NCBI RefSeq assembly: GCF_006345805.1
Contig: NW_021830103.1
Location: 1-5,274, forward strand
Direction of reading: 5' to 3'
Length of the DNA stretch: 5,274 nucleotides
From: Octopus sinensis
Lineage: Eukaryota
In this document: positions 660 to 4,814 of the stretch, piece after piece
Numbering within the stretch: position 1 is the first letter of the stretch
How the letters are laid out: each line of letters begins with the position of its first letter
Notes under the pieces: model-generated
The model's input: only the letters and a program-made list of their open reading frames with translations
Told to the model about the DNA's origin: nothing
Database searches by the model: none
Made by a program: the position numbers and the translations under genes

Positions 660-783
660 TGGGCCTGCTCGCTTAGCCAGCGGAGTAGCGTCATTTGGAG
701 GCTAACAAACAATGCGAAGCGCATTGTGACCAGCGATGTGTAGCAACATCTGATAGCCTGGTCGGTCACGGTGATCACGGTGA
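660..783 (+). mobile_element. 5'-truncated 3' end of a SINE/LINE-type retroposon
   Basis: GC-richer island between TA tracts (gggcctgctcgcttagccagc...gcattgtgaccagcgatgtg...) ending in a short tandem tail (gtcacggtgatcacggtgat). Resembles an octopus interspersed-repeat 3' end from memory; not searched. Confidence 0.55.
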
Positions 784-811
784 TATATATATATATATAC
801 ATATATATATA
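784..811. repeat. (TA)n microsatellite
   Basis: atatatat...acatatatatat. Confidence 0.9.
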
Positions 812-1085
812 CGACACCTATACCTCCACGAGGCTCCGGCAGTGGATGGTGGCGGCGAACCCTGCTGTGCTCTTTCACAAAAACTTTCTTCACCCATTTT
901 TCCTGTATTTCAAAAAAAAGGGCCAGCCTTGTCACACTCTGTGTCACGCTGAATCTCCCTCAGAACTATATTAATGGTACACGTATCTGTAGAGTACTCA
1001 GCCACTTGCACGTTAATTTCATGAGCAGGCTGTTCCGTTGATTGGATCAACTGGAACCCACATCGTCGTAACCGATGGAGTGCCA
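812..1085 (+). mobile_element. 5'-truncated SINE body and 3' region (octopus-type)
   Basis: cctgtatttcaaa..gggccagccttgtcacactctgtgtcacgctgaatctcc...gcaggctgttccgttgattggatcaactggaaccc..cgtcgtaaccgatggagtgcca matches my recollection of an abundant octopus SINE 3' half. No tRNA-like head is present in this copy. Confidence 0.6.
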
Positions 1086-1297
1086 TATTTCAACGTTCTT
1101 TACTCCAAACCAGTTTTGGTTTTATAACTCTCGTCGGCTACGAAGACAGAAAAAAGTAAAGACCAATGGACGAATAGTTAAATGGAACTTGAAATATGGC
1201 TTTTAATAAGTCAACGAGATATAAATTATTATTCTTGGTTTGTTGTTGTTCTTCTTTTCTTTATTTTTATTCTTTTCGGTATTGATTCCGTCTGAAA

Positions 1298-1966: not shown

Positions 1967-3185
1967 GAGTAATCCCTCACCATGCCTTGGTTCACCTATC
2001 GCGCCTTCAGTACATCGCAATTCACCGATCGCGCACTCAGTATATCGCGGTTCACCTATCGCACACTCAGAACATCGCGGTTCACCCGTCACACATTCAG
2101 AACATCGCGGTTCACCTATCGTGCACTCAGTACATCACGGTTCACCCATCATACACTCAGAACATCGCGGTTTACCTATCGCGCCCTCAGTACAGCGCAG
2201 TTCACCTATTACGCCCCCAAAACATTGCGGTTCACCTATCAGGGTTCACCTATCGCGCCCTCAGAACATCGTGGTTCACCCGTCGCGCATTCAGAACATC
2301 GCGGTTCACCTATCATGAACTCAGTACACCGCAATTCACCCATCACGCCCTCAGTGCATCGCGGTCCACCTATCGTGCCCTCAAAGCATCGCGGTTCACT
2401 TATAACAGTTCACCTATCGCGCACTCAGTACATCACGGTTCACCTGTCACAAACTCGATACATCACGATTCACCTATCACGGTTCACTTATTGCGCACTC
2501 CGAACATTGCGGTTCATCTATCGTGCCCTCAGTAGATCGTGGTTCACCCATTACGCCCTCACTACATTGCGGTTCTCCTATCGCAAACTCAATACATCGT
2601 GATTCACCAATCGCGGTTCACCTATTGCGCACTCAGTACATCGCGGTTCAGCTATTGCGCATTCAGTACATCACGGTTCACCTATCGCGCACTTAGTACA
2701 TTGCGGTTCTCCTATCGCAAACTCAATGCATCGCGGTTCACCTATCACACACTCAGAACATCGCGGTTCACCTATCGCGCCCTCAGTATATCGCGGTTTA
2801 CCTATTGTGCACTCAGAACATCGCAATTCACCCATCGAGCACTCAGTACATCGCAGTTCACCTAGCTCGCTCTCAAAACATCGCGGTTCACTCATCGCGG
2901 TTCACCTATCGCGCACTCTGTACATCGCGGTTCACCTATCGCAAACTCAATACATCGCAGTTCACCAATCGTGCCCTCAGTACATCGCGGTTCACCTATC
3001 GCGCACTCAATACATCATGGATTTTTTGGCTAATATATATAAATTTATATCGCGGTATCCTCTATATAACGCGAGTTCCTGCGGCCGATAGGTATTTAAA
3101 TTTTTTAGATTTTAATTATTTCTGTGGTAAAATAAGCATTTTCACGCCTAAAAAGTAATAAATAAAAATACAGTACTGCACTGTA
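1967..3185 (+). mobile_element. Putative pogo/Tigger-like (Tc1/mariner superfamily) non-autonomous DNA transposon left end, with its subterminal motif expanded into a minisatellite; right TIR not seen
   Basis: TA (1965-66) is followed by gAGTAATCCCTC, resembling the TA|CAGT..CCC(T/C)C starts of Tigger/pogo TIRs. It runs into the array and exits through atcatggatttttt, with another tatcgcgg at 3048-3055. The right boundary is approximate. Confidence 0.5.
1989..3018. repeat. 30-bp minisatellite, consensus GGTTCACCTATCGCGCACTCAGTACATCGC: 32 full units plus five 14-bp half units
   Basis: Full units start at 1989-2199 (8), 2243-2363 (5), 2407 and 2437 (2), 2481-2571 (4), 2615-2855 (9), 2899-2989 (4). 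Half units start at 2229, 2393, 2467, 2601 and 2885. 32x30 + 5x14 = 1030 bp. Confidence 0.98.
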
Positions 3186-3202: not shown

Positions 3203-3420
3203 AATATTCATTTCTTCTCTAGACACAAGGCCCGAAATTATGGGGAGGAGGCCAATCGATTAGATCGACTCCAGTACACAATTGGTATTTAATTTATCGA
3301 CCCCGAAAGGATGAAAGACAAAACAGACCTCGGCGGAATTTGAGCTCAGAACATTAATACAGACGAAATACTGCTAAGCATTTGCTCGGCGTGCTAACGT
3401 TTCTGCCAGCTTCGCTGCCT
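3203..3420 (-). mobile_element. Near full-length tRNA-derived SINE with a Meta-domain-like central region (octopus-type)
   Basis: Minus strand: GGCagcgaagc start; A-box-like TGGCAGAAACGTTAG (3408-3394); B-box-like GCTCAAATTCC (3345-3335); central ctttcatcctttcggggtcgataaattaaatacc resembling the MetaSINE core as I recall it; tail ggccttgtgtctagagaagaaatgaatatt. Confidence 0.85.
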
Positions 3421-4017: not shown

Positions 4018-4090
4018 TGGCGGTGCCCCAGCATGGCCACAGCTCATAAGCTGAAACTGGAAAAATCAAAATCAAAAAAAAAATCAAATA
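4018..4090 (+). mobile_element. Extremely 5'-truncated LINE/SINE 3' terminus with stem-loop and A-rich tandem tail
   Basis: tggcggtgccccagcatggccacagctcataagctgaaactgg with hairpin cagct-cata-agctg (4040-4053), followed by an (aaaatc)n tail. This is the usual layout of a retroposon 3' end. Confidence 0.65.
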
Positions 4091-4091
4091 A

Positions 4092-4114
4092 TATATATAT
4101 ATATATATATATAT
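4092..4114. repeat. (TA)n microsatellite
   Basis: Perfect TA run. Confidence 0.95.
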
Positions 4115-4519
4115 ACTTAATCATGTCGAAGTGAAATGGAAATTAATAGAAATTTTTACTTCCAGTAGCCTAGCGTGTAAAAAATTAGTCCAAAGACTAT
4201 GTATTACTCATGAAATTAGGATGTATAAACAAGAGGCATATAATTGATTGCCTCGTGTTTTATGTATTTAATCTAAGGTGTACCTGTTGACGACGATTTC
4301 ACCTAGCGAATATTACTTTATTTGCTAAACTAAAATCAGAAACCAATTGGTCCAGGAAACTAGATGGTAAAAGTTTATTTTTTCATTTCGTTCCTTTTGG
4401 GATTTTATCCCTAATTTTGTGGTTATGGAACCTAGTTGTTCTTTCTAGCGTGATGAATCCCACGAGTGGATTCCTTATGTGTTTAAATGTATACTGTATT
4501 TTATGAGTAATACATAGTC
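4115..4519 (+). mobile_element. About 400-bp hammerhead-bearing module flanked by (TA)n on both sides (putative PLE solo pLTR or retrozyme-like element)
   Basis: Bounded by perfect TA tracts at 4092-4114 and 4520-4541. Contains several hairpins and the near-intact HHR-3. Confidence 0.6.
4271..4365 (+). ncRNA. Near-intact type I hammerhead ribozyme (HHR-3), predicted cleavage after GUC at 4352
   Basis: Stem I cctg 4283-86/cagg 4353-56, with distal atcta 4271-75/tagat 4361-65; core TTGACGA 4287-93 (C3U variant of CUGANGA); stem II gattt 4295-99/aaatc 4333-37 and tagcgaata 4304-12/tatttgcta 4319-27; GAAA 4339-42; palindromic stem III ccaattgg 4343-50; U16.1 = 4351, C17 = 4352. Confidence 0.8.
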
Positions 4520-4541
4520 TATATATATATATATATATATA
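4520..4541. repeat. (TA)n microsatellite
   Basis: Perfect TA run. Confidence 0.95.
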
Positions 4542-4676: not shown

Positions 4677-4814
4677 ACATTGAATAATATGGGTTCAAAA
4701 AAAGTTTTTTACATAATTGTCACATTGAATATTATGCATTCAAAAAAGTTTTTACATAATTGTCACATTGGATATTATGAATTCAAAAATGTTTTTTATA
4801 CATATTGTCACATT
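4677..4814. repeat. Three tandem copies of a 43-45-bp unit
   Basis: acattgaatattatg..ttcaaaaa.gttttt.acata.ttgtc at 4677-4721, 4722-4764 and 4765-4809. Confidence 0.9.

Follow-up and report, generated by a model that had tools for sequence, protein, structure and literature searches.

The window analyzed here is one whole contig of 5,274 bases (NW_021830103.1) of the Octopus sinensis assembly, and the genome searched was this 2.7-Gb assembly. A type I hammerhead motif lies within 4116-4520 (Table 1). The initial annotation had placed it in apparently empty DNA; instead, these positions are occupied by a copy of a dispersed mobile repeat. Elsewhere in the window there are a MITE-like element at 4-374, whose 78-nt inverted ends are 99% complementary, a GC-rich 30-nt minisatellite at 1989-3016 with higher-order spacing of 44 and 74 nt, and a 43-nt tandem repeat of about three copies at 4677-4814. 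The pieces at 3226-3420 and 4019-4062 resemble what we take to be tRNA-derived SINEs, and 4019-4104 was found again in other loci.

Table 1. Features of the repeat copy and of its predicted hammerhead (positions in the window; stems, loops and cut site as predicted from sequence)
Feature	Positions	Strand	Remark
(TA)n target, left flank	4091-4115		
Inverted element piece, unit 379-479	4116-4216	-	Ends at the distal 3' site against (TA)n
Forward 5'-truncated piece, unit 94-401	4213-4520	+	Ends near the proximal 3' site; 91% identical to the natural unit in L023
(TA)n target, right flank	4520-4541		
Hairpin directly upstream of the ribozyme	4227-4260	+	Inverted repeat I21
Type I hammerhead motif	4271-4365	+	Outer stem I, 4271-4275 with 4361-4365
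Loop I GGUG	4277-4280	+	5' strand of the predicted pseudoknot
Stem I 5' strand CCTG	4283-4286	+	Pairs with CAGG, 4353-4356
Core TTGACGA	4287-4293	+	U3 U4 G5 A6 C7 G8 A9; the 3-8 pair is U.G
Stem II region, 45 nt	4294-4338	+	
Extra base between A9 and G10.1	4294	+	Varies A/C/T within and between subfamilies
Two-tier stem II	4295-4337	+	IIa, 4295-4299/4333-4337; internal loop, 4300-4303/4328-4332; IIb, 4304-4312/4319-4327
Internal-loop CACC	4300-4303	+	3' strand of the predicted pseudoknot
Second extra base	4338	+	
GAAA, stem III and C17	4339-4352	+	GAAA, 4339-4342; predicted cut between 4352 and 4353
10-nt palindrome containing stem III	4342-4351	+	
Stem III, CCAATTGG	4343-4350	+	Followed by TC, 4351-4352

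The copy is made of two pieces of the repeat unit in opposite orientation, and the inverted piece is 92% identical to the natural unit in another locus (L023). A reading of the copy as a MITE, based on a 23-nt inverted repeat (4194-4216/4498-4520), was rejected, because the repeat arises where the inverted and forward pieces overlap. The copy differs from its own subfamily at 7 of 279 columns (median departure, 5.8%). Since it lacks unit positions 1-93 and has a single ribozyme, it could not release a unit alone, and it is likely a truncated, inert insertion. The description of the ribozyme as recently active therefore suits the source lineage and not this copy, with its seven divergent columns and one ribozyme.

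Judged by its sequence, the motif is a genuine type I hammerhead, with self-cleavage a prediction. Three helices surround the core, stem I is open, and A15.1-U16.1 and H17 are in place. Helices and core stand in register around the GUC site with every part exactly where the initial annotation had put it, and its assignment to type I with a palindromic stem III, of the kind found in Penelope-like elements (PLEs) and retrozymes, was equally confirmed. Compared with the canonical core (C3 U4 G5 A6 N7 G8 A9 / G12 A13 A14), the window copy departs at U3 only, and its remaining 11 core positions match. Starting the core at 4284 instead would, judged by eye, leave stem I unable to close, and that register was rejected. 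What had been described as a C-A apposition at the base of stem II is better taken as an extra base of variable identity that precedes a G-C pair conserved in the family; probably, two extra bases flank a normal G10.1-C11.1 pair (G4295-C4337). An unpaired base after A9 is described as typical of PLE ribozymes (PMC4209133).

The hammerhead fold is the unconstrained minimum-energy fold of 4271-4365 (-17.9 kcal/mol), and a loose descriptor had one match in the window and at least one match in 9 of 300 shuffles (mean 0.03). When more flank is included (4260-4375), the best fold differs from the hammerhead (z = -1.12). The hammerhead accounts for about 4% of the predicted ensemble for 4265-4370, and among the five representatives of the subfamilies its predicted share is low in four. 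Searches against Rfam at E ≤ 10 found no hammerhead, either in the whole window or in 4190-4520. The case that can be made from the window is modest, and the main support for the hammerhead is the repeat family. Cleavage by the window copy is likely weak or slow, by analogy with a mutational scan of a type III hammerhead, in which changes in the CUGA region were all reported as low-activity except a C-G to G-C swap (PMC9901934).

The repeat unit is dispersed, non-coding and shorter than 510 nt (~480 bases), with 479 nt in the window's subfamily and 441-505 nt across the family by locus comparison. The right half of the ribozyme has 959 exact matches in the genome, against 1 for a control, and the family comprises about a thousand copies, gathered by sequence matching that may miss remoter subfamilies. 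A 111-nt query returned 45 matches from the 40 scored of 1037 candidates, 40 of them full-length at 91-100%. Contigs of four sequencing runs presumed to be RNA held scattered pieces of the unit, which carry no information on ends, strand or level. DNA contigs under four other or uncertain labels had the motif with the same variable columns, and G8A made up 13-62% of their depth, a share that is not usable as copy number.

A tree of 93 copies, which is rough and has unsettled bootstrap values, shows five subfamilies, A1 (with the window copy), A2, B, B' and C; a clade D and a U-A group are additional to these. A 150-copy tree was built in quick mode and without the left half, after 19 of 169 copies with short flanks had been dropped. 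Both trees are unrooted and do not give the order of changes at the 3-8 pair. The five subfamilies differ at none of 11 core columns, whereas they differ at 76 of 184 flank columns (P = 0.007, Fisher's exact test). In some subfamilies the left half of the ribozyme had been fixed by the search patterns; among the right-half columns that were not fixed in this way, 0 of 14 differ (P = 0.001). Nucleotide changes concentrate at N7, at the extra base at 4294 and in the loops.

The helices are conserved as pairs. In stem I, 93.6% of the cells are paired across 111 copies. The stem IIa pair 4297-4335 is U-A in 64, C-G in 38 and U.G in 6 of 111 copies. With the best 3' offset fitted for each copy, at least six of the eight stem IIb pairs are formed in 158 of 169 copies, and the pair 4310-4321 is A-U in 95 and G-C in 54 of them. 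Both tiers of the long stem II, which had been pointed out from the window, thus covary. The palindrome of stem III is perfect in 77 of the 99 copies sampled (39 of one length and 38 of another), and in another 16 a single central base departs from it. Its 6-nt form cannot close a hairpin, and for the window copy a self-duplex is predicted at -13.0 kcal/mol against -0.9 kcal/mol for the hairpin. The palindrome agrees with the cleavage as dimers that has been proposed for ribozymes of PLEs (PMC4209133). The initial annotation had named, as the first half of a result that would speak against the ribozyme, paralogues with neither conservation nor covariation; the paralogues have both.

U3, which the window copy does carry, had been taken as a C3U change in a near-intact ribozyme. 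It is not damage to this copy but inherited, being shared by 36 of 40 aligned A1 copies. It is also found in 8 of 8 A2 and 7 of 7 B' copies, and C3 in 15 of 16 B copies, although the copies of A2, B and B' were partly picked by patterns fixing base 3. A C3 consensus, which the initial annotation had raised as a point to check, accordingly fails in the window's subfamily and holds in sister subfamilies, as the canonical C3-G8 core is present in B, C and D. Within one fixed flanking context genome-wide, the 3-8 pair is C-G in 152, U.G in 111, U-A in 43 and C.A in 3 copies, a table that reflects few events because the copies are not independent. In the 150-copy tree, C-G, U.G and U-A form groups, and the six C.A copies are scattered singletons. 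A sample of 56 copies chosen by the right half alone has C-G 28, U.G 18, U-A 6 and C.A 4 (P = 0.30), so that covariation of the 3-8 pair is strong in the fixed-context count and weak in this less biased sample. The subfamily counts indicate that U3 is the inherited state of whole subfamilies and not decay of the window copy. Hammerheads with U3-A8 occur naturally (PMC3088659; PMC4209133), U3-A8 is the 3-8 pair of the autonomous PLEs of this genome, and one hammerhead variant listed from a saltern combines U3 and G8 beside an insertion (PMC7151607). We found no report of amplified U3.G8 families in the part of the literature covered, beyond which similar variants may be described.

A further contact is predicted between loop I and stem II. 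GGUG in loop I is complementary to CACC in the internal loop of stem II, the two strands lying four and five pairs from the core. The pair 4279-4301 is U-A in 61, U.G in 22, C-G in 14 and other in 9 of 111 copies. In all 13 copies of clade D, 4280 is changed to U and 4300 to a purine; the pair 4280-4300 needed registration by hand, and the automated count has one double change. A pseudoknot of 3-4 bp is predicted from these sequences, with two compensatory events. Taken alone, its columns (1 of 8 differing) are not significantly more conserved than the flanks (P = 0.15), and the first G of GGUG can extend stem I instead. GGUG/CACC may represent a competing structure, since non-hammerhead folds contain this helix too. 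In hammerheads of all three types, ~40% of the representatives are reported to have a pseudoknot that holds stems I and II together (PMC3088659); the available portions of PMC4209133 and PMC7761336 describe none for animal PLE motifs.

How the copies are inserted bears on how they move. Of 354 distinct segments, 61 run head to tail into the next unit. Among free 3' ends, 215 of 293 fall at two sites, 112 at unit positions 375-402 and 103 at position 465 or beyond, and 164 of these 215 abut a microsatellite. The 5' ends are scattered; of the 293 that are free, 165 are inversion junctions. All these counts come from loci chosen for ribozyme sequence, a choice that biases which ends appear. The cut site shows no accumulation of 5' ends, and it is crossed by 13 of the 61 upstream parts of tandems. 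Two whole ribozymes stand in tandem at seven loci, spaced 441-505 nt; among 14 candidate tandem pairs, three were rejected as chance matches and three as having a partial upstream ribozyme. Natural copies with two ribozymes include L026 (U.G), L083 (C-G), L147 (clade D) and L216 (mixed U.G/U-A). A non-coding unit whose type I hammerhead recurs in two or more successive units is expected of a non-LTR retrozyme, and these seven loci show it. The sole insertion of more than two units (L198, 3599-4652) has 2.4 units with a period of 441, and as its two whole units are almost identical, the array may be a local duplication.

PLE insertions are described as partly tandem, often with a truncated piece in inverse orientation and sometimes a tail, in microsatellite or (TA)n targets (PMC8557442). 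The unit shows these marks: tandems, the inverted 5'-truncated piece, the optional tail and microsatellite targets. Two 3' sites have been explained, in the PLE PAc, as internal starts of reverse transcription (PMC11167929). Because its copies have the PLE insertion pattern, the unit is likely a non-autonomous retroelement copied by PLE proteins.

Candidate helpers are present. The genome contains a young PLE of Neptune type, with domains RVT_1 and GIY-YIG; its 784-aa frame has RVT_1 and a GIY-YIG match just below the curated cut-off, and a cysteine motif before the nuclease is read as Neptune-type by analogy with the published description. Its terminal copies (n = 10) end five and five at two sites ~40 nt apart, against (TA)n. 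This element occurs at L091-L096 in tandems of 4.4 kb and has many near-identical copies; a frame of 437 aa lies upstream of the 784-aa RT frame and overlaps it, and the element's hammerhead has U3-A8 and a stem III that is palindromic. Other PLE families, with U3-A8 hammerheads downstream of GIY-YIG, were seen at L226, L232, L233, L235, L238-L241, L248 and L123.

Of more than 5000 candidates, 6 RT loci and 30 GIY-YIG loci were examined, and none held a parent sharing sequence with the unit. Sequence shared by the Neptune-type PLE and the unit is limited to a separate insertion in one locus, and no RT or GIY-YIG ORF is contained within the unit, which is under 510 nt. By tblastn, 12 of the 212 unit loci contain PLE coding pieces. 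The three read base by base (L036, L123 and L014) are separate insertions, two with their own ribozyme; L123 and L014 had looked linked to the unit, as had L222, which is a separate insertion as well. Between two copies 4.4 kb apart there is no ORF. With no shared PLE sequence and with the PLE pieces read being independent insertions, the unit is best taken as non-autonomous, and since no autonomous element among the loci examined shares its sequence, the helper is one that we infer. Two further observations were made in these loci. At L227 (~760-1250, plus strand), a fold-back insertion between (TA)n runs has another type I hammerhead-like motif; read by eye, this has C3-G8, its stem II region is long and its stem III is palindromic. 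The insertion is probably a second miniature family. On the minus strand of L222 (~400-565 and 830-985), distant relatives of the 3' half of the unit, ~65% alike, suggest older subfamilies.

We therefore favor, with a probability of roughly 0.78, the explanation that the ribozyme belongs to a retroelement that is non-autonomous and relies on a Penelope-type RT/GIY-YIG protein to copy it in trans, and that the window copy is truncated and likely dead. In such an element, a source copy with two head-to-tail ribozymes would be transcribed, the two palindromic stems III would pair together, and the RNA would be cut slowly as a dimer, perhaps assisted by the pseudoknot between loop I and stem II. 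A unit-length piece might then be joined into a circle, for which we see about even odds. A borrowed PLE protein would bind the RNA and nick (TA)n DNA, and reverse transcription would start inside the RNA, ~150-170 or 247 nt downstream of the cut site, read through the ribozyme and stop at random, often with inversion. The U3.G8 form of the core pair would stand between C-G and U-A, weaker than these but tolerated.

As copies run through the cut site with no pile of ends there, the template was either rejoined or uncut. A circle is slightly favored because it explains selection on catalysis together with read-through, whereas the scarcity of arrays above two units (one locus) favors uncut RNA, since a circle should give more of them. 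PAc, moreover, is reported to transpose in vitro without ribozyme cleavage, which favors uncut RNA (PMC11167929), and eight of nine Xenopus retrozyme dimers are described as uncleaved in vitro (10.64898/2026.07.22.740005). The strongest form of the circular scenario, in which the units are ~480-nt circular-RNA parasites of Penelope elements with a new internal-loop pseudoknot, the hammerhead is functional with U3.G8, and the lineages record a C-G / U.G / U-A path, is a speculative one that we think rather unlikely as a whole.

The alternative that survives best keeps the same element and helper and takes the copied RNA to be an uncut linear tandem, in which the fold would be maintained for another role, whether to bind protein, to allow trimming at a late stage or to release the RNA from host transcripts, and the U.G lineages would barely cut. 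It agrees with the absence of a 5'-end pile at the cut site and with nearly all insertions being shorter than two units; PAc catalytic mutants still insert in vitro, the PAc ribozyme is said to need protein (PMC11167929), and U.G is expected to be slow (PMC9901934). It does less well with catalytic positions that, beyond the helices, are invariant across subfamilies, and with a tertiary 3-8 pair that avoids mismatch in the large count; this invariance and avoidance point to an active conformation. We regard uncut RNA as possible, if still short of probable. Another alternative is that the unit is the pseudo-LTR of an unfound autonomous Penelope-like element and that all copies seen are its 5'-truncated ends. 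Most PLE insertions are indeed described as 5'-truncated (PMC8557442; 10.64898/2026.07.22.740005), and the PLE loci examined are a small share of the total, yet at the 61 tandem junctions it is the end of the same unit that precedes unit position 1, and PLE coding sequence occurs in only 12 of 212 unit loci, the three read being separate insertions, which leaves this alternative improbable. A decayed or chance look-alike in neutral repeat DNA, with U3 as damage, could draw on the missing Rfam match, the weak folding z-score and the small part of the predicted ensemble that the hammerhead takes up in four of the five representatives, but is very improbable, being largely refuted by compensatory changes in stems IIa and IIb and the 3-8 pair, with the core invariant and U3 common to three amplified subfamilies.

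The trans-copied retroelement bears on two questions. The role of hammerheads in Penelope-like elements is called unclear in the literature consulted, and the enzyme that moves animal retrozymes has there been proposed from co-occurrence and pLTR homology. As the family is almost nothing but a ribozyme and two start sites, with selection on the core and a PLE insertion signature, both questions become testable with a 0.5-kb RNA, and natural C-G, U.G and U-A versions of the 3-8 pair are available in one scaffold. Should the circular scenario be true, it would give direct genomic evidence of PLE enzymes mobilizing retrozymes, and PLE hammerheads would be needed for spread. That this ribozyme shape is missed by Rfam suggests that further families of this sort await annotation.

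Earlier publications cover hammerheads in PLEs, retrozymes, and the proposal that retrozymes are non-autonomous PLE derivatives. Three things appear to be new: the shape of the ribozyme, a core pair with three states of which the wobble is widely amplified, and evidence for PLE mobilization at the level of insertions. The family is not described in the literature searched, a search apart from repeat databases, and the word ribozyme is absent from the accessible text of a recent octopus repeat annotation (PMC13282606). The type I hammerheads reported from PLEs (PMC4209133) likewise have a 4-bp stem I, an extra base between 9 and 10.1, G10.1-C11.1, a small palindromic helix III and dispersed copies, and their U3-A8 covariation in Schistosoma is akin to the 3-8 variation here. 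In contrast to them, as far as they are described there, the octopus family has a two-tier helix II (~45 nt), whole U3.G8 subfamilies and no ORF, and loop 1, poorly defined in that account, is here well defined and covaries with the internal loop of helix II. According to a review, PLE motifs lack helix III or the tertiary loop contacts (PMC7761336).

Animal non-LTR retrozymes (PMC7229834; 10.64898/2026.07.22.740005) share with the octopus family a short AT-rich non-coding unit, one type I hammerhead per unit, occurrence as monomers or dimers, and co-occurrence with PLEs. The preprint among these sources, which sampled vertebrates, three insects and a coral, proposed retrozymes to be non-autonomous PLE derivatives in families of 51-972 bp (10.64898/2026.07.22.740005). 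The octopus family differs in having no long arrays (at most 2.4 units) and no homologous pLTR among the loci examined, and its PLE insertion marks (two 3' ends, inversions and (TA)n) are unreported for retrozymes in the consulted parts of both sources. Whereas the canonical retrozyme hammerhead has a 6-bp stem I and a 4-bp stem II in multi-copy arrays, a 4-bp stem I and a two-tier stem II are found here. The Poseidon element PAc of Anolis (PMC11167929) resembles the octopus unit in its AT-rich targets, partial tandems and two internal starts of reverse transcription downstream of the hammerhead; it is, however, autonomous and has a tail of 30-40 nt, whereas the ends here are ~80-100 nt apart. 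Non-autonomous elements of Chlamys such as MRC1 (PMC8557442) are likewise short non-coding PLE parasites with head-to-tail insertions, and have pLTRs; unlike the octopus unit, most Chlamys elements are described as lacking canonical hammerheads, and they share 3' sequence with their helper. Finally, in pseudoknotted hammerheads (PMC3088659) stems I and II are held by a pseudoknot, as is predicted here; the example described there joins loop I to the 3' tail in a type II ribozyme, whereas in the octopus family two internal loops would be joined, in an animal repeat.
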